Below, in pieces: positions 1 to 55,900 of a DNA stretch of 64,000 bases. The notes under the pieces are model-generated. The model had not been told where the DNA came from and made no database searches. It saw only the letters and a program-made list of their open reading frames with translations. The translations under genes and the position numbers were made by a program. The stretch is taken from contig CAZMSH010000006.1 of NCBI GenBank assembly GCA_964568875.1, positions 2,905 through 66,904 on the forward strand. The letters are read 5' to 3'. Source of the stretch: an uncultured Rikenellaceae bacterium. GTDB taxonomy: Bacteria > Bacteroidota > Bacteroidia > Bacteroidales > VadinHA17. Numbering within the stretch: the first letter of the stretch is position 1; each line of letters begins with the position of its first letter.

Positions 1-53
1 AGGCGGTGCTGAAGATGGCAGTTCAGGCTTCAGTAGAAGAGCAGGTGAATTGA
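1..53 (+). CDS. 3' end (partial) of a 91-aa-family small protein, paralog of 1798..2073 and 3858..4133
   Basis: Nucleotides 1..59 are identical to 4081..4139. Reads ...AVLKMAVQASVEEQVN then TGA at 51..53. Confidence 0.7.
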   Translation, partial: AVLKMAVQASVEEQVN

Positions 54-56
54 TGA

Positions 57-277
57 AGCGGTGTGAGGTATGAGGTATGAGGCGTGCGGTGTGGGGTATG
101 GGGTATGGGTAAAGGGCATAGCGGCGTAATGTCATATTGACATAACGGCATGGGGCATGGAAAAAGGGTAATCGGTAAACGGTAAAAGAGGTAATCGGTG
201 AACGGCAATGGAGCATGGAGCATGGGGCATGGAGCATGGGGACAAAGGTATAAAGGTTCAGCGTTCAGCGTTTAGAC
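57..277. repeat. Mosaic intergenic repeat locus L1 (heptamer arrays plus hairpin module M3)
   Basis: Tandem 7-mers GAGGTAT/GGGGTAT, GCATGGG/GCATGGA, GGTAATC/GGTAAAC and GTTCAGC. M3 module at 107..160 contains the hairpin ATGTCA-TAT-TGACAT. Confidence 0.85.
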
Positions 278-319
278 TAGTTTTTGTTTATCTTTAGTCA
301 TTCCTTGAAAATCAATGCT

Positions 320-559
320 ATGGAAAAAAGTGATGATGAGATGAATGATGCTGAGGGCAGGCAGGAGCCTGATGGGCAGGCCGAAAGTGCTTTTGCCAAA
401 ATACTGCGGCACTGGGAAAGTAAAACGCCGGAGGAAAGAAAGGAGCACTTAGACAAACTTAATCAAAGACGTGTTGAGGAGAAGCTGAAGGAGATTGCAA
501 GAGAAGATGAGGAGGAGAAGAGGGCGGAGGAGAAGAAGAGGGAGGAGGAGGATTTATGA
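320..559 (+). CDS. Hypothetical highly charged (Glu/Lys-rich) small protein
   Basis: ATG at 320 inside ORF 284..559 (which begins with TTG). Sequence MEKSDDEMND...EEKKREEEDL is low-complexity and coiled-coil-like. No recognisable family. Confidence 0.35.
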   Translation: MEKSDDEMNDAEGRQEPDGQAESAFAKILRHWESKTPEERKEHLDKLNQRRVEEKLKEIAREDEEEKRAEEKKREEEDL

Positions 560-819
560 TCTGACCGGTATGATCTTCCTGCGGTTGGGCGAGGGAAGAT
601 AACTCAGATTATAGAAGAGGATTGTTATCCGGTTGCCGACAGTGTCAACTTTCTGGTTTACTGGCGAAATACGGATACCAATAGTGAATTGGTAATCATA
701 TTGCCTGAGCTGCCGTTTGTAAGACAGTTGAGTCCAGTTTAGCTGTCGTAACCGGAAAATAGTGGCTCTATTCATTAATATGCCGGTTTCTGCTTTCGGA
801 AGATTGCATTGGAGTTCTT

Positions 820-1446
820 TCAAATCACAGGGCTACCCGGCAGCAAATTCAGTATCCTCTCCCAGATAATTACTGATTCCGGCGTGGCGGCATTCTGGTT
901 AGAAAGGTCATTCTCCCGGAAAATATCCTCAAGGTAATCTTCAAAATGGCTTGACAGACGCCAGTTAATATGGTTATAATTGTAATTCTGCCTGGAAATG
1001 GTTCTGTCCGGCTGCTGAGGCAGGGTACCCTTCAAATCGAATTTTTGAATGAATTCCGGTCCTGCCAGGGGGAGCATCTGAAGAAGCAGGGATTCCAGTT
1101 CAGGATTTGAAATATTCTTTCTCAGGCCCAGAAGTATCTCAATAATGCGTTCAATAATTGCAGAGTCGGTAAGGCTAAGGGTAGCTATGGAATACTCCGG
1201 ATCATCATAATAGTACAGTCCGGACCTACGACTTATGGGTGCGTTAAAGCCCAGAATGTCACTCCTCATTATTCTGATATCATTTTGAAGGGTTCTTTCA
1301 GAAACCTTTCCGCTTCTGTCAGTTGCTGCTGACAATGCTGCTGTGCACTCATCGATCAGTTCATTAATACTGTAGCCCCTTCTTCCTCCATAAAGGCAGG
1401 TGTCAATGGTTTTGTACCTGATAAGAGAATTGTAAGTTGCCGGCAT
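820..1446 (-). CDS. Winged-HTH transcriptional regulator (YafY/BrxR-type N-terminal HTH, no obvious WYL domain), paralog 1
   Basis: First ATG at 1446 gives MPATYNSLIRYKTIDTCLYGG...SERTLQNDIRIMRSD, the typical N-terminus of Bacteroidota HTH_11/WYL-family regulators. Paralog at 9323..9934. Confidence 0.7.
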   Translation of the reverse strand: MPATYNSLIRYKTIDTCLYGGRRGYSINELIDECTAALSAATDRSGKVSERTLQNDIRIMRSDILGFNAPISRRSGLYYYDDPEYSIATLSLTDSAIIERIIEILLGLRKNISNPELESLLLQMLPLAGPEFIQKFDLKGTLPQQPDRTISRQNYNYNHINWRLSSHFEDYLEDIFRENDLSNQNAATPESVIIWERILNLLPGSPVI

Positions 1447-1526
1447 AATTGAAGTTTCATGGTACAGGAGGACTGCAAAGGGGTCCACAAAATTGCACCA
1501 GGGTATTACTTTGTCTGTAACAAACC

Positions 1527-1534
1527 CAAAAATA
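1527..1534 (-). promoter_or_regulatory. Candidate Bacteroidota -7 box (TATTTTTG) for the wHTH gene
   Basis: Minus strand reads TATTTTTG, matching TAnnTTTG. It lies in a block conserved with 10016..10023 upstream of the paralog. Confidence 0.4.
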
Positions 1535-1797
1535 CAAAAATATGAATACAGAAGGGGCCAGCTTATAACAACCAAAGGCAGTTAGTATGGCAAAAACGCG
1601 CTACCTGAAAAGAGATACTATTAAAGTTGTTTTTGAAATCCATAAAGAAAAAAATATGGATTTTTTTACATAGCCTAACCACATGACTGTCTGCCTGTTC
1701 CGTTGTGCAGTAAAAAATATTTTAATAAAATTTCGAATTTTGCCTCTATAAAATATCCTTTTCTGCCTTTAATAGGTAGATATAAACTATTACATAC

Positions 1798-2073
1798 ATG
1801 AAAAAGGATACTATCAGATTGTTTCTTCTATCCGGAGAACTGGCCGATCAGTTATTATGGGTTGAACTTTACCCCTTTATAAGCAAGATGCCGGAAACAA
1901 AAGACAGCTTTGGTAACACTGAGGTTATTGCTGATGAGGATGGCTGTTTCTACGCTCGACGGTTTCGCTTTGGCGGATGGACATTCAACGAAAAAGCGTG
2001 TTCAAATTGCCATACCTATCAGGCGGTACTGAAGATTGCCGTTCAGGCTTCAGTAGAAGAGCAGGTGAATTGA
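1798..2073 (+). CDS. 91-aa protein of unknown function, family copy A1
   Basis: Complete ORF. 58/91 residues are identical to 3858..4133 in an ungapped hand alignment. About 95 nt of upstream leader is conserved. A short GCATGGGG remnant follows the stop. Confidence 0.75.
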   Translation: MKKDTIRLFLLSGELADQLLWVELYPFISKMPETKDSFGNTEVIADEDGCFYARRFRFGGWTFNEKACSNCHTYQAVLKIAVQASVEEQVN

Positions 2074-2171
2074 TAAAGCATGGGGTGCGGGTTTGGTCTT
2101 GTGGTTCGCTTCCAGCCACTTTCTGAACTCATTTTGATCTGCAAAGAAAACAGGGGTCATTCAGTTTGGTG

Positions 2172-3116
2172 TTATACTAAGTTGAGTTGCATGTATCTGG
2201 ATTCCAGTATTTTTATGTATCCAGATTTCATTTCGTCGGACAAGAAAGATTTTTCAATCCACTCAAAAGCTTTTGGTTTGTTTGCTACCAGCCTTTTGAA
2301 GACACCATCAGTCTGCCTGTCGGTCAGATCAAGATTCTGTGCCAGGCTGACAAAGTTTTTCCGGGTGAGCTTTATCTTCTTACCATCGAGTGTAAGGGCT
2401 GTCTCTTCAGTATCTTCGGGTAATACTATTGCGACGTTTAATAAATCGTAAGCCGGAGCCAGAACCCATCCGGAGCTGCCCCTGATCATCGAGAAATTCT
2501 TAAGATGCATATCGTTATTGCCCGTTAAGAAACAGAACAACACCAACTCGAAATAGAGGATCTTATCAAGCAGCGTATTCTCTGAATAGCTGTGTAAAGC
2601 CTTTCCCACCTTTTCCAGTGAGCTTCTGTACTTATCGAAGGCTTCAGTGGTCTGGAACATATCAAGCATATGAATTTTGTAGCCCGTTTCGGTTCTGTCA
2701 ACACGTTTTGCTATGTATGACAATTCACCTGAAGCCAGTCTTATCAGACTCGAAGGGACAACAGAAATATTGAATGCTTCTGCTATGCGCATGGTTAAAT
2801 GCTCATTTTGCGGGACTTCGGGATATCTTTCAGTAGGGGGTTTTAATATATAGTTACCACCCAGAGCTCCGACCACAGTTAATCGTGGTCCGGAATTATT
2901 CATAGCTGCTTTAACCAACGACATTGATAATTTGGCCTGTACCCCCGGAATTGTAACACTGCGTTCAACTACATCCCTTGCCAGCTCTGACATCTGATCG
3001 ATCGAATATGGAATTACTGGAGGTATTGCGGTTCCAAAGAAAGCCTGCGAACATCTCTTATGCAGATCATTTTCGCCGTTAAGAGGTTCATAACAATATA
3101 AACACCTATCCGACAT
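2172..3116 (-). CDS. hipT: HipT-like Ser/Thr kinase toxin (HipA C-terminal kinase domain only)
   Basis: Gly-rich loop IPGVQAKLS, catalytic GNNDMHLKNFS (DxHxKN) and APAYDLLN are present. The N-terminus has CxxC-x10-HxxC. An alternative upstream ATG at 3140 also exists. The gene overlaps hipS. Confidence 0.85.
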   Translation of the reverse strand: MSDRCLYCYEPLNGENDLHKRCSQAFFGTAIPPVIPYSIDQMSELARDVVERSVTIPGVQAKLSMSLVKAAMNNSGPRLTVVGALGGNYILKPPTERYPEVPQNEHLTMRIAEAFNISVVPSSLIRLASGELSYIAKRVDRTETGYKIHMLDMFQTTEAFDKYRSSLEKVGKALHSYSENTLLDKILYFELVLFCFLTGNNDMHLKNFSMIRGSSGWVLAPAYDLLNVAIVLPEDTEETALTLDGKKIKLTRKNFVSLAQNLDLTDRQTDGVFKRLVANKPKAFEWIEKSFLSDEMKSGYIKILESRYMQLNLV

Positions 3117-3441
3117 CGTTTTCGTGAATTGGTACAACACTTACCGCTCCGATGCAATTCCGGCAGCAAGCCAGAAGCAATCCCATACGGTCATTCTTAC
3201 TAATCTTCCAGGTTTCTGATGCTATATCCAGCAGCCATCCTTCGGGTATCAACCCTTCAAAAAAGGGGAATAAACGTTTATCGGTGTACGGTTCTGAGGT
3301 AACCGGCATAGTAAACGTTATGAAGTCGTCTGGATTTTCTTCTGCATACTTTGCGTCGTACTGAAAGACATACTCACCCTCATTGGTTTCAATAAGTAAC
3401 CCGGCAAGGTGCTCGTTATAATATACTTTCGCCTGTCTCAT
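3106..3441 (-). CDS. hipS: HipS-like protein (stand-alone HipA N-terminal subdomain)
   Basis: 111 aa, MRQAKVYYNEHLAGLL...FFEGLIPEGW, typical of the HipA N-terminal (couple_hipA) domain. ATGA overlap with hipB at 3438..3441. Confidence 0.8.
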   Translation of the reverse strand: MRQAKVYYNEHLAGLLIETNEGEYVFQYDAKYAEENPDDFITFTMPVTSEPYTDKRLFPFFEGLIPEGWLLDIASETWKISKNDRMGLLLACCRNCIGAVSVVPIHENDVG

Positions 3442-3647
3442 TTGTCAAGTTCCTTACTGTTAACCGGGGCCAACTCGTGTCCGAACATCTTCAGCACCAG
3501 ATTGACTTTATCCAGATTGAGGTTCGTCTGTCCCTGCTCTATTTTTCGTACCACCGTTAAGGCGACACCAGTCCGTTCAGCAAATTGCTCCTGTGTGAGT
3601 CCTGCTTCTTTTCTGCGTTCCTTAACAAATTCCGCCAATCGTCTCAT
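3438..3647 (-). CDS. hipB: XRE-family HTH protein, HipB-like
   Basis: 69 aa with LTQEQFAERTGVALTVVRKIEQG, an HTH_3 motif. It is the first gene of the three-gene operon. Confidence 0.85.
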   Translation of the reverse strand: MRRLAEFVKERRKEAGLTQEQFAERTGVALTVVRKIEQGQTNLNLDKVNLVLKMFGHELAPVNSKELDK

Positions 3648-3745
3648 TATATGCCTTTAAATATAATTATGAGCAAATATAATCATTTATATGTAATTAG
3701 ATATATTTTTAGTACATTTTATTATTTTATATGCTTTTAGATATA
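3648..3745. promoter_or_regulatory. Three candidate HipB operators, TATAT-N8-ATATA, at 40-bp spacing
   Basis: TATATGCCTTTAAATATA at 3648..3665, TATATGTAATTAGATATA at 3688..3705, TATATGCTTTTAGATATA at 3728..3745. The first abuts the hipB ATG. Confidence 0.55.
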
Positions 3746-3857
3746 ATTTGCCAGGGCATTAGGTATGAGTAAAAAAATATTTTAAAAGTATTTCAAGTTT
3801 TGGTTCTATTAAATGCCCTTTTCTGTCATTAATAGGTGGATTTAAACTCTTACGGAC

Positions 3858-4133
3858 ATGAAAAAGGATAATATCAGATTATTTCATCTTTGCGGTGTGC
3901 TGGCTGACCAGTTATTATGGGGTGATTTTTTCAACTGTGTAGCCCAGGAGGCAGAAGACGATGATTTACTCGGCAACAACGAGGTAATAACTGATGCGGA
4001 TGGCTGTATCTATGCTCAGCGGAGTCGCTTTGGCGGATGGACATTCAGTGATAATGCACGTGCAAATTGTCAGATCTACCAGGCGGTGCTGAAGATGGCA
4101 GTTCAGGCTTCAGTAGAAGAGCAGGTGAATTGA
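3858..4133 (+). CDS. 91-aa protein of unknown function, family copy A2
   Basis: Complete ORF, paralog of 1798..2073. Its 3' end is identical to window positions 1..53. Confidence 0.75.
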   Translation: MKKDNIRLFHLCGVLADQLLWGDFFNCVAQEAEDDDLLGNNEVITDADGCIYAQRSRFGGWTFSDNARANCQIYQAVLKMAVQASVEEQVN

Positions 4134-4136
4134 TGA

Positions 4137-4197
4137 AGCATGGGGCCAGCCTTCGCCGAGGCTCCGGCTGACAAAGCATGGGGTATGGAAAATGGAA
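4137..4197. repeat. Mosaic repeat locus L3 (module M1 short form plus GCATGGG units)
   Basis: CATGGGGCCAGCCTTCGCCGAGGCTCCGGCTGACAAAG at 4139..4176, then GCATGGGGTATGG. Confidence 0.8.
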
Positions 4198-4242
4198 TAT
4201 CCTATTTTACTATATTTGCTATTATCAATAACTCATTGAATA

Positions 4243-4770
4243 ATGCTGTCAAAAAAACTACCATTGTTGACCTGCATCATCTTCCTGTTTATTATGCCGC
4301 TGGTATCACAGGAACAGAATGATGTTTTTACCATATATCTGGTAAGGCATGCCGAGAGGGATGATGTGGGTGCTAAAACGTCCGATCCGGGGCTCTCAGA
4401 GGCTGGAATACTGAGGAGTGAAAAACTGTCGGTAATTCTTAAAGAGACAGATATTAAGCGTATTTACAGCACCAACTATGTGCGAACAATATCAACTGCG
4501 ACTCCTGTTGCGGAAAGTAAGTCGATTGAACCAGAAATATATAATGCGCGTGATCTTGATATGTTTTGTTCACTGTTGCTATCGCGCAAGGAGGATGCCC
4601 TGGTTGTCGGTCACAGCAATACGACAAGTGTGCTGGCCGGCCTGCTGGCCGGGAAAGAACTACCACCTATGGATGAGACAGTCTATGACCGGTTATATGT
4701 TGTTGTGGTATTCGAGGGAGGAGCCAAAATACATCTGCTGAACCAGGGGTACTCACCGGCGCTGCATTAA
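4243..4770 (+). CDS. Histidine phosphatase family protein (SixA/PGAM-like), secreted
   Basis: Signal peptide, IYLVRHAERDD (RHxE motif) and VVGHSNT. Confidence 0.75.
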   Translation: MLSKKLPLLTCIIFLFIMPLVSQEQNDVFTIYLVRHAERDDVGAKTSDPGLSEAGILRSEKLSVILKETDIKRIYSTNYVRTISTATPVAESKSIEPEIYNARDLDMFCSLLLSRKEDALVVGHSNTTSVLAGLLAGKELPPMDETVYDRLYVVVVFEGGAKIHLLNQGYSPALH

Positions 4771-4954
4771 CGGGCAGCTCTATTACTTGTCCACCAATTT
4801 ACTTTTGCTAATATTTTCGCAGACAAATAAGTCGGCCGAAAGTCCCCCCCTCTTTTCCCCTCTCCCAAAATAATCTTATATTGTAAGTTTAAATAACCTC
4901 GCCAGCGCAACTTTCTGTGTTCGCTTCTGTTATCATTTAAAAATATATCTACCG

Positions 4955-7900
4955 ATGAGAAAATCCGGGTACATCATATTCGCAGCCATCACCAGCCTCA
5001 GCCTTGCAATGGCCACAGCATTAAACGCTCAGATAGTTGAGGCCGGAAGTGGCAGTTATACCACAGCGTTTCCCGGCACCGATGCCGCGGGCAGAAACTC
5101 CTATCCTTCGGGTACGCCGCAACTTAGCGGCAACGCTGTGGGCAAGCCGGTTCCCACAAATGACTGGTGGTCGAAACTTATCAAGGAGGACCATGCCTCC
5201 AACCTTTTCAACTATCCCTTCACCATGCGCACCATGAACAATGGCCTGGTGGTCAGCTACATTCCCTGGGGTGTGATAAGCGACCTGATTCCTGTCACCG
5301 TAGGAGTTACCGGTCTTAACACCTCACAAGCCACCGTCTCCGACTACTCTGACTGGACAGTCACAATGAACTGGAACGATGGGGTGCGCAATTTCGAAAC
5401 CACCGCCGGCATCGCCATGCCATTTCTCTATTTTACAAAGGGTTCGTCAGATGTGGCACAAATCACAGTTGCCTCAGGAACAGTAACAATATCGGCTGAA
5501 ATGCTTATCATCACCAATGCCATAAACGGAGCCGATTTTGCCGTGTACGCCCCCGTGGGAAGCACCTGGGTCCAGAATGGCAACACCTACACCTCTACCC
5601 TCAACGGCAAAAATTACTGGTCGCTGGCTTTTATCCCCCTCACCGCTGCCAACGTCACCACCGTGGCCAACGAGTATAAGAAGTATGCCTACGTTTTCCC
5701 CGCCAATACAACCACGTCGTGGAATTACAATGAAAGCACCTCTGTGGTGAGAACCGATTTTACAGTTATTACAGATATTAAGGAGGGAACCGGGACTAAC
5801 ATGCTGATTGGATTGCTTCCGCACCAGTGGGCGAACCTGGCAACCGACTCGCCGGTACCCGATAAATACAGCTACGCTTCAGTCCGCGGCGAAATAAAAA
5901 CGATGGAGGGCAACAGCTTCAGCGTCGAAAACACCTTTCACGGTATCCTGCCTACCCTGCCCAATTTAGATAACTACAGCGACGGCTTTACCCCCACCGC
6001 GCTGGCAGAGAAAATCGAAAACATCGAAAACGATGTGCTGGCACTATGGACAGACTCATACAACGAGGGGCAGGTGATGAACCGCCTCGTTCAGACAGCC
6101 CGCATAGCCCACGAAATGGGTAATACCACTGCCCGTGACAAGATGCTGGCAACCATTAAGGACCGGCTAGAAAACTGGCTCACCGCCACCCTCGGCGAGG
6201 TGGCCTTCCTCTTCTATTACAACACCACATGGTCAGCCATGATCGGCTACCCTGCGGGTCACGGTCAGGACAGCAACCTGAACGATCACCACTTCCACTG
6301 GGGTTATTTTATTCATGCTGCAGCTTTCCTGGAGCAGTTTGAACCCGGATGGGCTGCAGGCTGGGGTGATATGGTGAACCTCCTGGTGCGCGATGCCGCC
6401 AGTCCTGACCGCGGAGACCTGCTGTTTCCCTGGCTGAGAAATTTCAGTCCCTATGCCGGCCATTGCTGGGCCAACGGCTTTGCAACCTTCCCACAGGGCA
6501 ACGACCAGGAATCGACCTCGGAAAGTATGCAGTTCAATTCGTCTCTCATCCATTGGGGAACCATCACCGGCAACGATGAGATCCGCGATCTGGGTATTTA
6601 CCTGTACACCACCGAGCAAACCGCCATTGAAGAGTACTGGTTTGACATGTACGACCGCAACTTTCTCCCCACGCAGCAATACAGCCTGGTGTCGCGTGTA
6701 TGGGGCAACAGTTACGACAACGGCACCTTCTGGACCAACGATATTGCTGCTTCCTACGGCATTGAACTCTATCCCATACATGGAGGCTCACTTTATCTGG
6801 GTCACAACACGGCCTATGCAACCAAACTCTGGAACGAAATAAAGGCCAATACAGGCATTATGAGCAACGAGGCCAACGTCAACCTGTGGCACGATGTGAT
6901 GTGGTCGTACCTGGCCTTTACTGACCCTCCTGCGGCCATCGCATTGTATGACTCCTATCCCGACAGGTCGCTCAAGTTTGGTATTTCAGATGCGCAGACC
7001 TACCACTGGCTGCATGCCATGAATGCCCTCGGACGGGTAGATGCCACCATCACGGCAAACTATCCCATTGCCACAGCATTTAATTCAGACGGAACCATTA
7101 CCTACGTAGCACACAACTATTCAGATACGCCTGTAACGGTTACCTTCTCCACCGGCTATGAGCTTGCGGTACCAGCCCGCACCATGCGCACAAGCAGGGA
7201 CATTGACATTTCCGGGGTTCTTTCTTCATCATTCAGCAGTGCCTATCCCGGCGGAAGCGTCGAGCTTACCCTCACAGCAGATGGGGGAACACCAACCAAA
7301 GTGGAGTTTATGGATGGAACCATTTCGCTTGGAACCGTCACCACGTCACCATTTGTCTGGAAAGCCACCAGTCTGACACCCGGCAGGCATAACTTCTACG
7401 CCAGGGTGTTCGATGGTGAAAGATTCAATACGTCCAATATCGTTAAGGTGCTGGTTGGCAGCCAGGTGCCTTATGGAGGAACACCCTGGCCGGTTCCCGG
7501 CATTATTGAAGCCGGAAAATACGATCTGTTTGAAGGAGGCAGAGGCCAGAACATCGCTTATCTGGATCTATCCGTCAACAATGAGGGCGATTTCAGGACG
7601 GATGAATATGTTGACGCTGTAACCTCGGTGGCCGAAGGAGCCTATGTTGGGTGGATATCGGCCGGTGAATGGCTCGAATACACTGTTAACGTCACCCAGG
7701 CCGGATTGTATTCATTTGCTTTCCGCTATGCATCGGGTAATCCTGCCGGAGGAGGGCCCTTCCATCTTGAACTGGACGGTAGCCAGGTTTCGGGACCTAT
7801 AGCTGTGCCATCGACAGCAATAAATAATTGGGATGTATGGGCGACGAAAACAGTCACCGACATACCACTTACACCCGGTACTCATGTGTTGCGTGTCTAC

Positions 7901-9100
7901 TTTGAGGGTGGTGAATTCAACCTGGGCAGGATGACCTTTGCACGCACCGGAGACATACCGTTCAGCTACCCCACAGCGAATGCCGGCCAGTTTGTGAAAG
8001 TTGTTCTACCGGCCAGCACGGCGCAGCTTGATGGCTCGGCAAGTACAGAATCGACCGGTCAGCCATTGACATATTCCTGGACACAAATCAACGGACCTTC
8101 TGTGGCTCAATTCACCGAAACATCAGTGGTAAATCCTGTCATCAGCAACCTTGTTGAAGGTGTGTACAGCTTCAGGCTCACCGTTACCAACAGCGACCTG
8201 CGAACCTCCACCGACGATCTTTTAGTAATTGTAAGCAGCACCGAGAATCTGTCGCCCATGGTGACTCTGATGGAGCCGGCCGATAATTCGGTCTATCCTG
8301 AAGGAACAGAGATTACAATCACCGCCAGCGCAAGCGACTTTGACGGAACCATCCAGAAAGTGGATTTCTACAGAGACGGGCAGCTTATCTATTCTGACAA
8401 TGAGGCTCCATACAGCGCTGTCTGGACTCCATCGGCAGGCAGCTATGCCCTGACTGCCGTAGCTACCGACAATCAGGGCGCTGAAAGTACTTCACAATCC
8501 GTTAACGTCACCATAATGCCGGTGCAAAGATGTACAGGCACCTCAACAGGCGCCATAAACGGCTCATTTACACTGGGCTACAACTACTCATTCGAAACTA
8601 TTGGCACTGACGTTGTCATCACCCTTGAGCTGCTCGACGACAAGGCAGGGGTTATAGCGTATCTGTGGAACAAGGACCCTTTCTGGGAAAAGAGCATGAC
8701 AAACATTGGCGGTAAGGTATTTACGACAACCTTAACCGGACTGGCGTTGAACGAGACCATTGAAGTAGCCTGCAAGTTTGCCTTTGCAGGGGGGATGGCC
8801 GTTACCAGCTATCTGACCTACAGGGTAGGCGAAAATTGCGTTCCCACGTCTGTGGAGATATCACCCATAGCCAGGGTTAATCTATACCCGAATCCGTTTA
8901 CCGATATTTTGCAAATAGATTCAGAAAGCGAAATAGAGGAGGTAGAGGTTCGTAATTTAGCGGGACAACTTGTTACAATAGTTCAGGCACACAGCAACAG
9001 GGTTTCACTCAATTTAAGTTCTGTCGCAGCTGGTATTTACTTTATAGTTGTAAAACAAGCCGATGGAAGCATCTCCGTTCACAGGGTGATTAAGATGTAG
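4955..9100 (+). CDS. Multidomain GH81 endo-beta-1,3-glucanase with CBM6-like, PKD/Ig-like modules and a T9SS C-terminal sorting domain
   Basis: GH81 signatures NLNDHHFHWGYFIHAAAF, AGHCWANGF and NDQESTSES. CBM6-like GWISAGEWLEYTVNV...FRYASG. C-terminus NLYPNPFTD...AGIYFIVVKQ...VIKM. Confidence 0.85.
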   Translation: MRKSGYIIFAAITSLSLAMATALNAQIVEAGSGSYTTAFPGTDAAGRNSYPSGTPQLSGNAVGKPVPTNDWWSKLIKEDHASNLFNYPFTMRTMNNGLVVSYIPWGVISDLIPVTVGVTGLNTSQATVSDYSDWTVTMNWNDGVRNFETTAGIAMPFLYFTKGSSDVAQITVASGTVTISAEMLIITNAINGADFAVYAPVGSTWVQNGNTYTSTLNGKNYWSLAFIPLTAANVTTVANEYKKYAYVFPANTTTSWNYNESTSVVRTDFTVITDIKEGTGTNMLIGLLPHQWANLATDSPVPDKYSYASVRGEIKTMEGNSFSVENTFHGILPTLPNLDNYSDGFTPTALAEKIENIENDVLALWTDSYNEGQVMNRLVQTARIAHEMGNTTARDKMLATIKDRLENWLTATLGEVAFLFYYNTTWSAMIGYPAGHGQDSNLNDHHFHWGYFIHAAAFLEQFEPGWAAGWGDMVNLLVRDAASPDRGDLLFPWLRNFSPYAGHCWANGFATFPQGNDQESTSESMQFNSSLIHWGTITGNDEIRDLGIYLYTTEQTAIEEYWFDMYDRNFLPTQQYSLVSRVWGNSYDNGTFWTNDIAASYGIELYPIHGGSLYLGHNTAYATKLWNEIKANTGIMSNEANVNLWHDVMWSYLAFTDPPAAIALYDSYPDRSLKFGISDAQTYHWLHAMNALGRVDATITANYPIATAFNSDGTITYVAHNYSDTPVTVTFSTGYELAVPARTMRTSRDIDISGVLSSSFSSAYPGGSVELTLTADGGTPTKVEFMDGTISLGTVTTSPFVWKATSLTPGRHNFYARVFDGERFNTSNIVKVLVGSQVPYGGTPWPVPGIIEAGKYDLFEGGRGQNIAYLDLSVNNEGDFRTDEYVDAVTSVAEGAYVGWISAGEWLEYTVNVTQAGLYSFAFRYASGNPAGGGPFHLELDGSQVSGPIAVPSTAINNWDVWATKTVTDIPLTPGTHVLRVYFEGGEFNLGRMTFARTGDIPFSYPTANAGQFVKVVLPASTAQLDGSASTESTGQPLTYSWTQINGPSVAQFTETSVVNPVISNLVEGVYSFRLTVTNSDLRTSTDDLLVIVSSTENLSPMVTLMEPADNSVYPEGTEITITASASDFDGTIQKVDFYRDGQLIYSDNEAPYSAVWTPSAGSYALTAVATDNQGAESTSQSVNVTIMPVQRCTGTSTGAINGSFTLGYNYSFETIGTDVVITLELLDDKAGVIAYLWNKDPFWEKSMTNIGGKVFTTTLTGLALNETIEVACKFAFAGGMAVTSYLTYRVGENCVPTSVEISPIARVNLYPNPFTDILQIDSESEIEEVEVRNLAGQLVTIVQAHSNRVSLNLSSVAAGIYFIVVKQADGSISVHRVIKM

Positions 9101-9322
9101 GGGTGTAAGGGTAAAGGGCATAGCGGCGTAATGTCATATTGACATAATGGCATGGGGCTTGGTGCATGGGTAAGGGGCATAGCGGCATAGCGGCGTAATG
9201 TCATATTGACATAACGGCATGGGGCATGGGGTTTTGGGAAAGGGTTGCGGGTTGCGGGGGATTTCAGATTTCAGATTTGCGTTGTGCTCTCATTCGGTCG
9301 AGTGGTCAGCCAAGGCTTCGGT
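9101..9322. repeat. Mosaic repeat locus L4 (two M3 modules, G-run block, GATTTCA array, M2 module)
   Basis: M3 at 9109..9157 and 9168..9231. G-runs at 9221..9260. GATTTCAGATTTCAGATTTGCG. M2 at 9285..9323, abutting the stop of the wHTH paralog. Confidence 0.85.
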
Positions 9323-9934
9323 TTATGATATCAGATCCAAGACTCTGCCCCAGGTAATGACTGATCCGGGCTGGCCGTCATCTTGTTTATAAGAATCATT
9401 TTCCGGGTTTATATCCTCAAGGTAATCTTCAAAATGGCCAGACAAACGCCAATTAACATGGTAATAATTATAATTCTGCCTGGGCATGGTTCTGTCCGGC
9501 TGCTGAGGCAGGGTACCCTTCAAGTCGAATTTTTTAATGAATTCCGGTCCTGTAAGGGGAAGCATTTGAAGCAGTAATGATTCCAGTTCAGGCTTGGTAA
9601 TCTTCTTTCTCAGGTTTAGAAGTATTTTAAGAATGCGCTCAATAATGGTCGGGTCGGTAAGGCCAATTGTGGCAATGGAGAACTCCGGATCATCATAATA
9701 ATATAGTCCGTCCCTACGGCTGACAGGTGCGTAAAAGCCCAGAATGTCACTACGCATTATTCTGATATCATTTTGAAGGGTTCTTTCGGATACTCTTCTG
9801 CTACTACCGGCGGATGCTGACAGTGCCGCTGTGCACTTATCTGCCAGTTCATTAATACTGCAGCCCCTTTTGCCTCCATACAGGCTGGAGTTAATGGTTT
9901 TGTATCTGATAAGAGATTTGTAAGTCGCCGGCAT
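9323..9934 (-). CDS. Winged-HTH transcriptional regulator, paralog 2
   Basis: ATG at 9934 gives MPATYKSLIRYKTINSSLYGG..., alignable over its full length with 820..1446. The upstream leader is conserved. Confidence 0.7.
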   Translation of the reverse strand: MPATYKSLIRYKTINSSLYGGKRGCSINELADKCTAALSASAGSSRRVSERTLQNDIRIMRSDILGFYAPVSRRDGLYYYDDPEFSIATIGLTDPTIIERILKILLNLRKKITKPELESLLLQMLPLTGPEFIKKFDLKGTLPQQPDRTMPRQNYNYYHVNWRLSGHFEDYLEDINPENDSYKQDDGQPGSVITWGRVLDLIS

Positions 9935-10015
9935 ATTCGAAGTTTCATAATTCAGAAGGAATGCAAGGAGGATCACTATAATTATACCCGTGTATTCCGT
10001 TAACTGAATCAAACC

Positions 10016-10023
10016 CAAAAATA
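10016..10023 (-). promoter_or_regulatory. Candidate -7 box (TATTTTTG) for wHTH paralog 2
   Basis: Same motif in the same conserved block as 1527..1534. Confidence 0.4.
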
Positions 10024-10188: not shown

Positions 10189-11379
10189 TTAGTAAAGGAA
10201 TCCAAACAGCCAGAGTGGGATTTCATTGCTGTAACCGGTTTCAATCCCGTCAACAACCAGGAAGGAATCGGGGATTCCCGCAATCTGTTTTCTGGTCTTG
10301 CTTCTTCCTCCAACCTCAAAGATGTAGCGGTTATTAACCAGGAAATCTCCCTGTTTTGGATAGTGAACTGAGTTATATGGTACAAGCTGACTCAGGAAGA
10401 ATGTCTCCCTAAGATTTCCCTTGTCCGGCCTGGTTCCTGCAAGGGTATACATGAGATTCGGATTCTGAAGATAAATCTTATCAGGCTTGGTAAGCAATCC
10501 TATACCCTTGCTGTCAGAATAGAGCAGACTTATAAGATTTGCTTCACCCATATAACGGAGATAATCTTTCAGGGTATTCCTGGCAATACCAATTCTTTCG
10601 CTCAGCTTATCAATATTAGGGGTAAAGGGGGCGCTTCCGGAGATTATGTACAGCAACTGCTTTATCTTATGAATATTCGACATACTGATACCGGCTGTGA
10701 AGGGCAGATCGTTTTCCAGGACAGACAGGATCACCTCATTCAGTTTCCTGTGATAGTTGTCGGTTCCCTCAAGAAAAAAAGGATAATATCCATGTTCAAG
10801 ATAGAGGTTCAGCCACTTTATCGGCTTTATCTCTTTCCAGATGTCCGGGGCAATTGTCTGATGTGAGCCCAGAATAGCTTCAAGAGTAACTACCGGAAAA
10901 TTTTTGTTATCGGCAATATTGATAAATTCCCTGAGCGACAGACCCGGAAGGTCATATGTTACACTCCTTCTCGACAAGTCAGCCCTGCCCGCTGTCAGAT
11001 GCAATAGCGAAGAGCCGGTATAGACAACCTTAAGGTCAGGCATTGAATCGTAAATATTCTTCAGTTCCTGCGACCATCGCGGATAATGATGCACCTCATC
11101 GATGAGTAAATATTTACCGCCATTCTTGGAAAATGAATCGGCAAATGAGAGGAGACTATTCTCAGAGAAGTAAAGATTGTCAAGGCTTACATATACATAT
11201 TGCTGATTTTTTAAGATTGTCTTCGCGTACTGCAGCAGCAATGTGGTTTTCCCAACACCTCTGCTTCCCTTAATACCGATCAGTCTTTCTTTCTGTTTAA
11301 GCCATTCGATCTGCGGACGAATATGTGTTTCGCTAACCATTTCGACAGATCTTGCAGATGTTTCAAATATGGCGTTCAT
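10189..11379 (-). CDS. P-loop ATPase, AAA_14/DUF4143-like, paralog 1
   Basis: Walker A GSRGVGKTT, Walker B LLIDEVH, C-terminal GDFLV...IFEVGG. Confidence 0.8.
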   Translation of the reverse strand: MNAIFETSARSVEMVSETHIRPQIEWLKQKERLIGIKGSRGVGKTTLLLQYAKTILKNQQYVYVSLDNLYFSENSLLSFADSFSKNGGKYLLIDEVHHYPRWSQELKNIYDSMPDLKVVYTGSSLLHLTAGRADLSRRSVTYDLPGLSLREFINIADNKNFPVVTLEAILGSHQTIAPDIWKEIKPIKWLNLYLEHGYYPFFLEGTDNYHRKLNEVILSVLENDLPFTAGISMSNIHKIKQLLYIISGSAPFTPNIDKLSERIGIARNTLKDYLRYMGEANLISLLYSDSKGIGLLTKPDKIYLQNPNLMYTLAGTRPDKGNLRETFFLSQLVPYNSVHYPKQGDFLVNNRYIFEVGGRSKTRKQIAGIPDSFLVVDGIETGYSNEIPLWLFGFLY

Positions 11380-11456: not shown

Positions 11457-11745
11457 GGAAGGCGGGGGGAGGATGTCAGATATCTGAAATCAGATGTGCT
11501 CCCGCTGGTCGCGAGCCCGGCTGCGGCTCGGTTGCTCCCCTTCGGTCGAGGGGTCGCTGGGCCTGGAGCGGGATTGCTACGAAGGGCATGGGGCCAGCCT
11601 ACGCCAAGGACCTTCGCCAGGGCTACGGTCCTCGGGGAGCTTCGGCTGACAGGGCATGGGGCCAGCCTACGCCGAGGCTTCGGCTGACAGGGCATGGGGC
11701 ATGGAGCAAGGGGCAAGGGGTTGCTGGTTAAGTAGGAGGTGACGG
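11457..11745. repeat. Mosaic repeat locus L6 (M2 plus partial M2, M1 long, M1 short, GCATGGG/GCAAGGG units)
   Basis: M2 at 11497..11533, partial M2 at 11534..11557, M1 at 11587..11652 and 11655..11691. It fills the divergent spacer between two ATPase genes. Confidence 0.85.
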
Positions 11746-11817
11746 GCAATTTCTTACCACAATAATTGTTTTTGATAGCTGTATTGAGTAATTTTGCTCA
11801 GCACACTGAGTAATAAC

Positions 11818-13008
11818 ATGAAAGAGTACAGAAGACCTCACTACAGTAATCTTAAATCGCGGCTCGCGGAAAAGAGGAACTTTATACAGGTGATTGCCGG
11901 TCCGAGGCAGGTTGGCAAGACAACACTTATAAGGCAACTCCTGGAAAACAGAGTTGATTCAAGCAGTTATGTTTCGGCAGATTCGTACGAAGGTTCCGGC
12001 AGCAACTGGATAGAAAAGCACTGGGAGGCTGCCAGAATATTGTCACGGCAAAGAAATGCTTCTCACATACTTGCAATAGATGAGATTCAGAGAATTCCCG
12101 ATTGGAGTACCACGGTAAAAAAGCTGTGGGATGAGGATACTTTCAGTGGAAGTGAATTAAAGGTTATTATTTCCGGGTCATCAAATCTGCTGATAGCGGA
12201 AGGACTTACCGAGTCACTTGCCGGGCGCTACGAGATTACAACCCTCAGCCACTGGAGTCTTGCTGAAATGCATGAAGCTTTCGGATGGTCAGCAGAACAG
12301 TATACATGGTTCGGGGGTTACCCCGGGTCGGCAATCCTTGTAGGTAATGAACAAAGGTGGAAGCAGTATGTAAGAGATTCTCTTATTGAGCCAACGATAG
12401 CAAAAGACATTCTTATGATGACCCGCATTGACAAACCTGTCTTATTGAGACAGCTATTCAATCTCGGGTGCTCCTATTCAGGCCAGATACTCTCATACAA
12501 TAAGATGCTGGGGCAGTTGCAGGATGCCGGTAATACCGTAACCCTGGCCGGGTATCTCAATCTTCTAGACAGTGCAGGATTGCTGACAGGCATTGAGAAA
12601 TACTCGGGCAGCACAGTCAGACAGAAGCTCTCTAGTCCGAAACTGATGGTAAGGAACACAGCGCTGCTCTCATCATCATTCCAGGAGGGATTCGAACAGA
12701 TAAGGAACAGGCCGGAGTTATGGGGAAGAGTTGTTGAATCGGCCATTGGAGCACACCTGGTTAACAGATGCAGGGAGAATGACTGCAGGGTATGGTACTG
12801 GCGTGAAGGGAACGATGAGGTAGACTTCATTATACAAAACAGGAACGTCATTGCCGCTGTTGAGATCAAATCGGGGCCAACCATCAGAAAAAAGGGGTTT
12901 GACAGGTTCAGAAAACTATATCCCGATTCCAAAACTATTCTGGTTGGCGATGCAGGAATTCCATGGCAGGAATTTTTACTGATGGAACCGCAGGATATAG
13001 TGAGTTAG
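11818..13008 (+). CDS. P-loop ATPase, AAA_14/DUF4143-like, paralog 2
   Basis: First ATG at 11818 (the ORF-track start at 11794 is TTG). GPRQVGKTT, LAIDEIQ, C-terminal EVDFII...AAVEIKSG (D...ExK). Confidence 0.8.
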   Translation: MKEYRRPHYSNLKSRLAEKRNFIQVIAGPRQVGKTTLIRQLLENRVDSSSYVSADSYEGSGSNWIEKHWEAARILSRQRNASHILAIDEIQRIPDWSTTVKKLWDEDTFSGSELKVIISGSSNLLIAEGLTESLAGRYEITTLSHWSLAEMHEAFGWSAEQYTWFGGYPGSAILVGNEQRWKQYVRDSLIEPTIAKDILMMTRIDKPVLLRQLFNLGCSYSGQILSYNKMLGQLQDAGNTVTLAGYLNLLDSAGLLTGIEKYSGSTVRQKLSSPKLMVRNTALLSSSFQEGFEQIRNRPELWGRVVESAIGAHLVNRCRENDCRVWYWREGNDEVDFIIQNRNVIAAVEIKSGPTIRKKGFDRFRKLYPDSKTILVGDAGIPWQEFLLMEPQDIVS

Positions 13009-17115: not shown

Positions 17116-18249
17116 ATGAAACTGACTCTTATGATAATCACACTGACAGTTACACTGGCCTGTATTACTGCCTGCGGAAAGGGGAAGCCAGCTTTTTACC
17201 GCGATGCTGACGGCAGCGTTGCCCCGGGAAGCATAGCTGAGAAGATACTCGTGCCCATAGGAGGAGTCGATCAGGGGATGATAATCCGCACCAGGGATAT
17301 AAATAATCCGGTGCTGCTTTTTGTACATGGGGGCCCGGGGTTCCCTACATATTTCCTTGTTGAAAAGTACAATCCCGGCCTCGAGGAGCATTTCACGGTT
17401 TGCTACTGGGAGCAGCGGTGCGGAGGCCTCTCCTGGTCGCCCGGCATGACCCCTGAGAGCATAACCCTTGAAAAGCTTACGGCCGATGCCATTGAGGTGA
17501 CCAACTACCTGCGCCAGCGATTTAAGAAGGAGAAAATTTACATACTGGCTCATTCCGGTGGAACCACTATTGCGCTGCCGGCAGTTACACAGGCTCCGGA
17601 GCTTTACCATGCCTACATTGCCATGGCGCAGCTGACCAGGCAGCAGGAGTCGGAAAAGATAGCCTATGACTATATGCTGGAGTTGTATCATGAGAGGGAT
17701 GACCGCCGTATGGTAAAAAGGCTGGTAAAATACAGAGGGCTCGAGAGCGACGAGGATGTTCTCGCCTTTTACAATTCCGGACTACGTGACATGACGATGC
17801 ATGAATTGGGTATCGGGACCATGCGCACCATGCGGTCGGTATTCAAAGATATCTTTGTGGAGTCCTGGAAGTGCAGGGCGTATACTTTTCGCGAGAAGAT
17901 AAATCTCTGGAGGGCGAAGATGGGGTTCCTGCCAAAGACAAACCTGAGGCAGGAGACACTGTTTGCCGACTTTGCTGAGGAGTATCCTGAGGTGGAGATT
18001 CCGGTATATTTTGTTTGCGGACGGCACGACCTGACTGTAAATACCGCGTTAACGAGGGAGTACTACGACAAATTGAAGGCACCGGTAAAGCGCTTCTTCC
18101 TGTTCGAGAACTCGGCACATAGTCCGCTATTCGAGGAACCGGAGCGGTTCAGGGAGGTGGTGATGGGCCTGATGCCCGCATGGAGCATGGAGCATGGGGC
18201 ATGGAGCATGGGGTATGGGGTATGGCAAAAGGTAATCGGTAAATGGTAA
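17116..18249 (+). CDS. Alpha/beta hydrolase (proline iminopeptidase-like) lipoprotein
   Basis: Lipobox LACITAC, VHGGPGFP, nucleophile elbow AHSGG. The last ~24 codons lie in repeat locus L7. Confidence 0.8.
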   Translation: MKLTLMIITLTVTLACITACGKGKPAFYRDADGSVAPGSIAEKILVPIGGVDQGMIIRTRDINNPVLLFVHGGPGFPTYFLVEKYNPGLEEHFTVCYWEQRCGGLSWSPGMTPESITLEKLTADAIEVTNYLRQRFKKEKIYILAHSGGTTIALPAVTQAPELYHAYIAMAQLTRQQESEKIAYDYMLELYHERDDRRMVKRLVKYRGLESDEDVLAFYNSGLRDMTMHELGIGTMRTMRSVFKDIFVESWKCRAYTFREKINLWRAKMGFLPKTNLRQETLFADFAEEYPEVEIPVYFVCGRHDLTVNTALTREYYDKLKAPVKRFFLFENSAHSPLFEEPERFREVVMGLMPAWSMEHGAWSMGYGVWQKVIGKW

Positions 18250-18367
18250 ATGAGGTAAACGGAAAAGGTGATGGGCTCAAGGCATGGGCATGGGCATGGG
18301 GCCAGCCTTCGCTGATGGCTACGGCTGACAAAGCATGGGGCATGGGGCATGGGGTTGCGGATTTTGG
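18177..18367. repeat. Mosaic repeat locus L7 (GCATGGA/GCATGGG, GGTAATC/GGTAAAT units, M1 short form)
   Basis: Heptamer runs. M1 at 18295..18333. Positions 18292..18355 are identical to 20365..20428. Confidence 0.85.
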
Positions 18368-20361: not shown

Positions 20362-20434
20362 TCAGGGCATGGGGCCAGCCTTCGCTGATGGCTACGGCTG
20401 ACAAAGCATGGGGCATGGGGCATGGGGTGCAGGT
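20362..20434. repeat. Mosaic repeat locus L8 (M1 short form plus GCATGGG x3)
   Basis: 20365..20428 is a perfect copy of 18292..18355. Confidence 0.85.
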
Positions 20435-36949: not shown

Positions 36950-37320
36950 GGGGAAGGGCGTAGGATGGCGTAGGATGGCGTAAAGGGCGTAGGATGGCGT
37001 AAAGGGCGTAGGATGGCGTAAATGGCGTAAAAGGCGTATAATGGCGTAGCAGGGGAGAAGGGCGTAAATGGCGTAAAAGGCGTAAAGGGCGTAGAAGGGC
37101 GTAAAAGGCAGGATGGCGTAGGATGCCGTAGCTGGGCAGGGGATTTCAGATATCAGGTTAACGATTTCAGATTTGCGTTGATGATTTCACTGCGGTCAAA
37201 CAGAGTTGTGGACGAAAAGGGAAATTAGCGGAGTGAAGGGTGCAGGTTGCAGGTTGCAGGGTGCAGGTTGCAGGTTACAGGTTGCAAGTTACAGGTTGCA
37301 GGTTACTGGTTTTTATTTTA
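36950..37320. repeat. Mosaic repeat locus L11, the largest array (~370 bp)
   Basis: About 16 GGCGTA-based 9-10-nt units (36957..37130), a GATTTCA block (37141..37190), a degenerate M2-like segment, then 10 tandem TTGCAGG-type heptamers (37240..37309). Confidence 0.9.
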
Positions 37321-55784: not shown

Positions 55785-55900
55785 CTCACGATACCCGAAC
55801 CGAGACCGGCCTGACGGTCGAGCTCGCGACCGAATGGGAGCATACCCGATACCCGATACCTGGCACCCCACACCCGGTACCCGACACCCGATACCCCAAA
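55785..55900. repeat. Mosaic repeat locus L14 (inverted orientation)
   Basis: M2 in reverse at 55798..55842, 44/45 identical to 31874..31918. C-run heptamers ATACCCG etc. at 55843..55897. Confidence 0.85.

Follow-up and report, generated by a model that had tools for sequence, protein, structure and literature searches.

The DNA considered here is a stretch of 64,000 nt from an uncultured Rikenellaceae bacterium (contig CAZMSH010000006.1, positions 2,905 to 66,904), the whole of which is called the window below; related contigs or loci carry L numbers and proteins of the family under study P numbers. Near the start of the window, an undescribed gene of 91 codons recurs three times on the plus strand next to genes of conflict systems such as the HipBST toxin-antitoxin (TA) module. 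Two of these copies are complete open reading frames (ORFs), and their products align without gaps with 58 identities over 91 residues (E = 2e-43). Only the 3' end of copy 1 falls within the window, where positions 1-59 match 4081-4139 at 100% and the final part of copy 2 at 93%. The full copy 1 was read on L004, a Joint Genome Institute (JGI) contig that overlaps window positions 1-2015 at 99.95%, and again on L001; its product is 79% identical to that of copy 3.

At the DNA level, the homology spans 374 nt (1712-2085 versus 3772-4145) at 78% identity, and the edges of this unit lie 86 nt before the ATG and 12 nt beyond the stop codon. The identity drops in a patch at nt 65-110, corresponding to residues about 22-37. 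No copies besides these three are present in the 64-kb window. A prior interpretation of the letters alone (the sequence-only reading) had claimed three same-strand copies, the 59-nt identity of the first to the third, 58 of 91 shared residues, and a central divergent patch, all of which were recovered; the upstream stretch that it had described as conserved over about 95 nt is indeed conserved, with an actual length of 86 nt. The parts of the units in the window are as follows.

1-53, plus strand: 3' end of copy 1 (last 16 codons and stop codon; protein P0006), 100% identical to 4081-4133
1712-1797, plus strand: conserved putative promoter and leader region of copy 2
1798-2073, plus strand: copy 2 of the 91-aa gene (P0009), with the unit homology continuing to 2085
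3772-3857, plus strand: conserved putative promoter and leader region of copy 3, in which an RNA-seq contig starts at 3799
3858-4133, plus strand: copy 3 of the 91-aa gene (P0001)

A narrow family of acidic proteins

The 91-codon ORFs are real genes that define an undescribed and very narrow family. Pairwise dN/dS values among seven close members range from 0.22 to 0.59, with pN being about equal to pS in codons 22-40 only, and members with just 29-42% identity are exactly 91 residues long and align without gaps. An AlphaFold2 model built with 16 sequences attained a predicted local distance difference test score (pLDDT) of 87 and a predicted template-modeling score (pTM) of 0.79; a model built with 10 close sequences attained a pLDDT of 60, and the Foldseek output from it is meaningless. 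The predicted order of elements is a β-strand (8-12), a helix (14-31), an acidic loop, two strands (41-46 and 51-56), a short strand at about 61-63, a short helix (65-68), and a long C-terminal helix (71-90). The fast-evolving patch (residues about 22-40) maps to the end of the first helix and the loop of this model. By sequence count, the protein is acidic, with 14 Asp/Glu against 7 Lys/Arg and a net charge of -7.

The family is rare. Among 5.8 billion proteins, a single-sequence search recovered 10 clusters and a profile search 18, and among 1.84 billion proteins there are 6 representatives, two of them being repeat-protein artefacts. The giant repeat proteins P0011 and P0014 were rejected as relatives, their matches being artefacts of summed weak repeats. 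All named members are annotated as "hypothetical protein," and they come from sludge, biofilm, and freshwater-sediment metagenomes, in bins labeled Bacteroidales or Rikenellaceae. No relative was found by tblastn in phage and plasmid collections or in a scan of viral contigs (IMG/VR), and JGI metagenome contigs, scanned twice, yielded none either.

Nor did the protein match any model in Pfam, NCBIfam, PADLOC, or PHROGs; with 16 members searched against Pfam at E ≤ 10, only a chance match to AcrF31 appeared, and a sequence profile search of the PDB gave no match. Foldseek with the pLDDT 87 model returned nothing at E ≤ 0.1 from the PDB or BFVD, where no match improved on E = 0.1-0.4. The statement of the sequence-only reading that no family is recognizable is thus upheld by these searches and by hhalign, and the AlphaFold and Foldseek check that it had suggested yielded a confident model with no fold match. 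The sole recurring resemblance in Foldseek is a weak one to the N-terminal half of GNAT folds. A GNAT acetyltransferase was rejected: the best query-normalized TM-score is 0.51 with E values of at least 0.5, a GNAT is twice as large as this protein, and the acetyl-CoA motif Q/R-x-x-G-x-G/A is absent and not conserved in the family alignment. Comparison by hhalign gave probabilities of 0.05% for YefM and 0.3% for RelE, and there is no RelE or BECR structure among the best 50 of 186 Foldseek matches in the PDB. A type II antitoxin was likewise set aside, as there is no profile match to Phd/YefM or other Pfam antitoxins and the gene is monocistronic, with no toxin in the same operon. Cys12 is not conserved, which speaks against a lipoprotein or secreted product. 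An origin of the variable patch like that in diversity-generating retroelements was rejected, with no reverse transcriptase or template repeat present and dN about equal to dS only in the loop.

The upstream block and transcription

The 86-nt block preceding the ORF is the most conserved part of the unit, with the consensus TTTTG(G/C)(T/C)TCTATAAAAT.CC....TG.CATTAATAGGT....AAAC.CTTA...ATG. It is retained in members at 35-42% protein identity and also precedes a very divergent 88-aa tandem paralog that follows P0016 (L027:4041-4307); over about 270 kb (the window plus the loci), nhmmer located it only upstream of family genes. That the unit carries its own conserved upstream signals, as proposed from the sequence, therefore holds even for relatives at 25-40% protein identity.

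Parts of the leader can pair with the translation start. In copy 3, the tract CCCTTTTCTGTC is able to pair with GACATGAAAAAGG at the start codon, and in the minimum-energy fold of most members, the CC(C)UUUUCUGUC tract and a CAUUAAU repeat pair with (UUA..)GACAUGAAAAAGG, the partners being otherwise written as CCUUUUCUGUC and GACAUGAAAAAGG; the predicted pairing covers the start codon and codons 2-4. Across an alignment of 10 leaders, 84% of the cells pair in this helix, three pairs have changed on both sides (e.g., UGUC/GACA to UGAC/GUUA and CCUUUUC/GAAAAGG to CCUC/GAGG), and the observed score was reached by 3 of 500 shuffles. These data support, though not strongly, a leader helix that sequesters the start codon and might thereby gate translation. 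A search of the leader with Rfam covariance models gave only a chance snoRNA match (E = 0.42).

Some further features of this region were seen in particular members. The leaders of distant members (L019 and both L027 genes) end in a two-codon mini-ORF, ATG-NNN-TGA, which overlaps the main ATG. The 88-aa paralog of L027 shares the leader motif and differs in having an insertion of 11 residues and no long C-terminal helix. Some copies are also preceded, about 130-190 nt upstream, by a second, weaker block (window 1636-1670, L017:~2790-2830, and L023:~7850-7900), which reads TTTGAAATCC..AAGAAGA.AAATATGG, or (E)FEI.EE.KYGCF as a peptide, and perhaps represents the last part of an upstream ORF that has been lost.

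RNA-seq contigs from sludge cover 3799-4043, 3881-4031, and 4002-4139, all of the copy 3 type, along with hipBST at 2097-3524. The intergenic stretch 3525-3798 is uncovered in the same runs, as is 4200-6000, a pattern that favors RNA over contaminating DNA as the source. The contig that starts at 3799 is consistent with a transcript start, predicted near 3790-3810, just downstream of the AT-rich box. No RNA run matching copy 2 was found.

Neighboring modules and rearrangements at the units

The other features around the copies are the following.

54-286, plus strand: G-rich heptamer and REP-like (repetitive extragenic palindrome-like) repeats downstream of copy 1, with TRF arrays at 60-111, 162-205, and 208-239
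320-559, plus strand: 79-aa Glu/Lys-rich ORF, called in public assemblies but doubtful, with no family match
596-724, plus strand: remnant of the C terminus of a RecQ/UvrD-like helicase (tblastn against aa 1030-1072 of the L016 helicase, 58%, E = 2.6e-9)
820-1488, minus strand: 222-aa putative winged helix-turn-helix (wHTH)/WYL-like regulator, monocistronic, divergent from copy 2
2096-2160, minus strand: OmdA/DUF8412 remnant (about the first 21-24 codons), cut off precisely where the copy 2 unit stops
2172-3140, minus strand: hipT, HipA C-terminal kinase domain (PF07804, 1.5e-39)
3106-3441, minus strand: hipS, HipA N-terminal domain (PF13657, Couple_hipA, 4.8e-26; TIGR03071, 1.3e-27)
3438-3647, minus strand: hipB, XRE-type HTH antitoxin, divergent from copy 3 (PF01381, HTH_3, 2.1e-12; TIGR03070, 1.2e-19)
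3647-3748: AT-rich tandem repeat with a 40-nt period and 2.5 copies, between hipB and copy 3
4138-4189, plus strand: REP-like 52-nt element that recurs at 11654-11705, 18294-18345, and 20367-20418 and is not gene specific

The three overlapping minus-strand genes at 2172-3647 have the makeup of a tripartite HipBST TA system, and the tandem repeat beside hipB may be an array of HipB operators. The sequence-only reading had posited HTH-led operons divergent from both complete copies: HipBST is borne out by Pfam and NCBIfam, and the supposed wHTH operon is a single gene (820-1488) with HTH signals that are sub-threshold only (HTH_11, E = 0.18; PADLOC WYL, E = 0.0098). A paralog of this gene at 9323-10018 on the minus strand (82% nucleotide identity) has no 91-aa gene beside it; it shares G-rich repeats downstream (9097-9231). 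The 79-aa ORF may be spurious, since it directly precedes the helicase remnant in the same frame, and it was discarded as a partner gene on account of its place within this pseudogene remnant. The GC content is 40-46% in window positions 1-5000 versus 50-54% in the following gene (4955-9100, plus strand), which directly after the island codes for a 1381-aa GH81 glucanase with CBM6, PKD, and Por tail domains, the last being a type IX secretion system (T9SS) signal. Farther on, divergent ORFs of about 400 aa at 10189-11379 (minus strand) and 11794-13008 (plus strand) are flanked by REP-like elements; the former is an AAA_14/DUF4143 ATPase by Pfam, and the latter is so annotated only in the gene list of L009.

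Every context of the family is a TA or defense island. Its neighbors comprise AbiEi_2/AbiEii; HipBST; XRE-Peptidase_M78 with a PIN or DUF3368 partner; OmdA/DUF8412; HTH-SocA_Panacea with a 117- to 120-aa partner; HTH-pentapeptide; baeRF; SLFN/AlbA_2; SEC-C; MazG-like; DUF3024; a GreA/B-like gene; and AAA_14/DUF4143. The proposed association with TA and HTH loci is thus general, with relatives always in TA- or HTH-rich islands and no mundane family assigned. The type of neighboring module varies while the 91-aa gene and its leader are constant, and the same TA types also occur without the gene in the L016, L019, and L032 islands, which argues that it is not a component of any one system. The idea of a dedicated antitoxin for HipT accordingly finds no support: HipBST, AbiEi/AbiEii, XRE-M78, and Panacea modules are each complete without the gene, and the type of neighbor changes.

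Sequence is exchanged between the copies, truncation of copies is frequent, and adjoining genes are broken off at the unit borders. An nhmmer search with a DNA profile that spans the full unit reveals partial copies that protein searches miss. Within 12.7 kb, L032 holds one intact copy, adjoining AbiEi_2, and three partial ones: a 3' part of the P0012 type before a GreA/B-like gene, a 3' part from codon 21 upstream of XRE-M78, and a promoter with codons 1-15 beside HipB. One intact copy and one extra 3' remnant are present in L028, a tandem paralog in L027, and only codons 47-91 in L031, where a deletion took XRE-M78 together with codons 1-46. The seven additional copies or remnants, of which the window has two, L032 three, and L028 and L027 one each, are all co-oriented with the reference, for which the probability by chance is 1 in 128. 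As for exchange, all four combinations of the variants at aa 29-32 and aa 45-49 are present among members. Between copies 1 and 3, nt 215-282 are identical (permutation P = 0.0012, uncorrected for the 21 pairs), and nt 252-277 of copy 2 agree with both of them (P = 0.01-0.03). In the 3' segment, the paralogous copies 1 and 3 are 94% identical; copy 1 and the intact copy of L032, which are positional orthologs beside AbiEi_2, are 83% identical, pointing to homogenization within the genome.

Several rearrangements are apparent near the copies. L016 5727-7770 matches window 2096-4139 at 93.9%, and in this syntenic locus OmdA is intact and copy 2 is missing. The upstream AbiE segment carries a second set of the helicase remnant, 79-aa ORF, and repeats at 93% identity; there, the helicase duplicate (L001:435-560) is in frame with a 66-aa Glu/Lys-rich ORF, and the AbiEii gene beside copy 1 is truncated to 175 aa (E = 0.031). 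In contig L007, copy 1 and a further 171 nt run straight into window 9097-9448, an arrangement that is either a deletion variant or a second locus. DNA-run contigs compared with the window, all of them k = 31 unitigs, showed no clean cassette-deletion joints.

One contig, L001 (3428 nt, megahit k141), begins and ends with the same 141 nt, and L003 is its circularly permuted form. The resulting 3287-bp loop holds the 91-aa gene, repeats, the 66-aa ORF, DUF3024, a truncated AbiEii, and AbiEi_2. This could represent an excised circle of the unit with the AbiE module, or a tandem duplication. An assembly loop is the simpler reading because the 141-nt overlap equals the k of the assembler and coincides with an exact repeat with two exits (window 146-286); L009, from the same sample, begins at this repeat node.

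The short repeat GCATGGGG, which the sequence-only reading had tied to each copy, proved to be a general intergenic feature of the window: it occurs at 26 sites against 2.9 expected, 23 of which lie on the plus strand in the first 21 kb irrespective of how the flanking genes are oriented, and 20 of the 26 are not beside a 91-aa gene. It was rejected on this ground as a cassette signal. The suggestion that the gene is a passenger of a repeat-mediated cassette nevertheless came close, with the repeat being the gene unit itself and not GCATGGGG. Other intergenic heptamer repeats include GCATGGG, GGTATGA, GGTAATC, GGGCAAG, and AGGTTGC, with repeat sites at 60-240, 9150-9231, 10093, 11586-11720, 18178-18354, 20367-20427, 31974, 36953-37311, and 55842-55896. 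Such repeats probably help deletions, as at the L031 junction.

A mobile-module reading, its rivals, and known systems

Taking these findings together, we favor, at about an even chance of being correct, a reading in which the 91-aa gene forms a transcribed, self-contained unit, its copies act as direct-repeat substrates for recombination in a plastic island, and its product is a binding factor. Each copy is a monocistronic unit of ~374 nt, made up of an AT-rich promoter region, a leader of ~55-60 nt, and the ORF; the pyrimidine tract and inverted repeat of the leader would pair with the start region and gate translation. The units lie as co-oriented direct repeats between minus-strand TA or defense modules, in an accessory island that is decaying and low in GC. 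Modules might then be gained, lost, and reshuffled through homologous recombination and deletion at these portable blocks of homology, without the help of a dedicated recombinase. The acidic protein probably acts by binding or neutralizing; its small size and acidity, together with a conserved scaffold and a helix-loop patch that evolves fast, lead us to prefer a protein-binding factor (a neutralizer or regulator) over an enzyme, and this role is the least certain step of the favored reading. A bolder version, to which we assign a low probability, sees the units as gene-sized, self-expressed "punctuation": a unit with its module would loop out and reinsert by homologous recombination, free of any integrase, and the protein would act on the cassettes (on their stability, regulation, or recombination) under the control of the leader switch.

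Several observations weigh against what we favor. The L016, L019, and L023 islands hold many adjacent TA modules and only one copy, so punctuation by the unit is not obligatory. The breakpoints of partial copies are scattered (unit positions 134, 144, 155, 207, and 230), as random deletion predicts, and give no sign of a directed process, and the gene conversion P values are modest after correction for 21 pairs. The RNA contigs are unstranded, of low depth, and from a strain that is 95-99% identical. The covariation in the leader helix is scant, with only 10 sequences, and the block could equally be read as a DNA operator. Finally, the designation as a binding factor derives wholly from composition and context.

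Among the rivals, the units might be sites of an integron- or rAID-like site-specific cassette system, with a recombinase encoded elsewhere moving circles of the 91-aa unit and a module. Co-oriented repeats do flank modules, the L001/L003 loop holds exactly one unit and the AbiE module, and repetitive sequences also occur between the genes of rAID-1 arrays in Bacteroidales (Ross et al., bioRxiv 10.1101/471110). We deem this quite improbable: Pfam lists for about ten island contexts (within 10 kb, and not covering the stretch upstream of the window array) contain no recombinase domains, tyrosine or serine, the remnant breakpoints do not fall at one position, the modules have their own promoters and mixed orientation, and the L001 loop is fully explained by the exact 141-nt repeat that equals the assembler k. 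Moreover, the repeat is an expressed gene under purifying selection and not a short noncoding site. The same selective signature bears on the proposal that the ORF is a meaningless by-product of a functional or selfish noncoding DNA or RNA repeat element, or that the copies are decaying duplicates. The many truncated copies, the unusually high nucleotide conservation of the 3' end, and a leader conserved above the protein would fit this proposal; we hold it to be very improbable given a dN/dS below 1 outside one patch, the exact length with no indels at 30% identity, the confident predicted fold, and the lack of an Rfam match.

Two further rivals concern the product. It could be a solitary toxin or growth inhibitor of a type I TA-like kind, with the leader as an antisense target or translational lock and the copies as selfish addiction modules. 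Being monocistronic, found only in TA islands, and frequently inactivated by truncation, and having a leader that is more conserved than the protein and can sequester the start codon, the gene offers some grounds for this. The β-α-β-β-β-α order of its elements may resemble that of RelE-type toxins, but there was no RelE or BECR structure among the best 50 of 186 Foldseek matches in the PDB, and profile comparison by hhalign gave no RelE match. Since the protein is also strongly acidic (net -7), with no membrane segment and without the basic surface typical of RNA-targeting toxins, we consider a toxin rather unlikely. Alternatively, the protein could belong to the neighboring HTH-led module as its dedicated third part (for instance, as an anti-antitoxin, a co-regulator, or an orphan antitoxin) and be controlled from the divergent region that they share. 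It is divergent from the first HTH gene in six of about nine contexts (HipB, AbiEi_2, XRE-M78 twice, Panacea-HTH, and the wHTH gene), and small acidic proteins commonly serve as antitoxins or anti-repressors. Against this, the same promoter and leader stand beside five unrelated HTH families, which makes a shared operator unlikely; HipBST, AbiE, and XRE-M78 occur without the gene in L016, L019, and L032, and the wHTH paralog at 9323-10018 has no adjacent copy; and there is no similarity to Phd/YefM. We regard a third component as unlikely.

If the favored reading of the units as recombining direct repeats is true, they would offer a simple route to island plasticity in uncultured Bacteroidales. 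TA and defense islands are known to be modular, module exchange in them without a dedicated recombinase is poorly understood, and the 91-aa units are a tractable example of it; their anatomy is unusual and reproducible across genomes, with direct repeats at module borders, gene conversion, and rearrangement end points. The protein itself, a confident-fold orphan with no detectable relative and perhaps translationally gated, is a candidate for a new component of conflict systems.

Comparison with known systems brings out both parallels and differences. In type I toxin mRNAs of the hok, tisB, and symE class, the start codon is sequestered, and they come, like the present units, from small monocistronic genes of TA-rich regions whose conserved 5' leader can pair with the translation start; the product here is a soluble acidic protein of 91 aa and not a hydrophobic peptide. 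Small acidic inhibitors, such as Phd/YefM, anti-repressors, and anti-defense proteins, are similar in size, acidity, α/β build, and the placement of a variable surface on a conserved scaffold, but the 91-aa protein has no sequence or fold match to them, no toxin in the same operon, and no phage or plasmid relative. The pdif modules of Acinetobacter plasmids are bounded by 28-bp XerC/D sites in alternating orientation and, like the modules here, are discrete TA or accessory modules bounded by a recurring sequence and reshuffled between replicons; the present units are instead gene sized, co-oriented, and chromosomal, and the spacer of their leader inverted repeat (about 13-21 nt) is not Xer-like. 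The closest parallel in overall layout is with rAID-1 arrays and integrons, in which accessory conflict genes are likewise split by a recurring conserved sequence, with low GC content and a strain-variable structure (10.1101/471110). What defines those systems is a neighboring recombinase (XerD-like or IntI), together with cassettes that run in one direction and short noncoding repeats. In the present islands, no recombinase was seen, most modules lie on the strand opposite to the repeat and bring an HTH and a promoter of their own, and the repeated element is itself an expressed gene unit of 374 nt. Because no recombinase was seen and both short noncoding sites and co-directional cassettes are absent, the array in the window is not a member of the integron/rAID-1 or pdif kinds, and we see it as a variant of repeat-punctuated accessory arrays that is built on a new orphan protein family.

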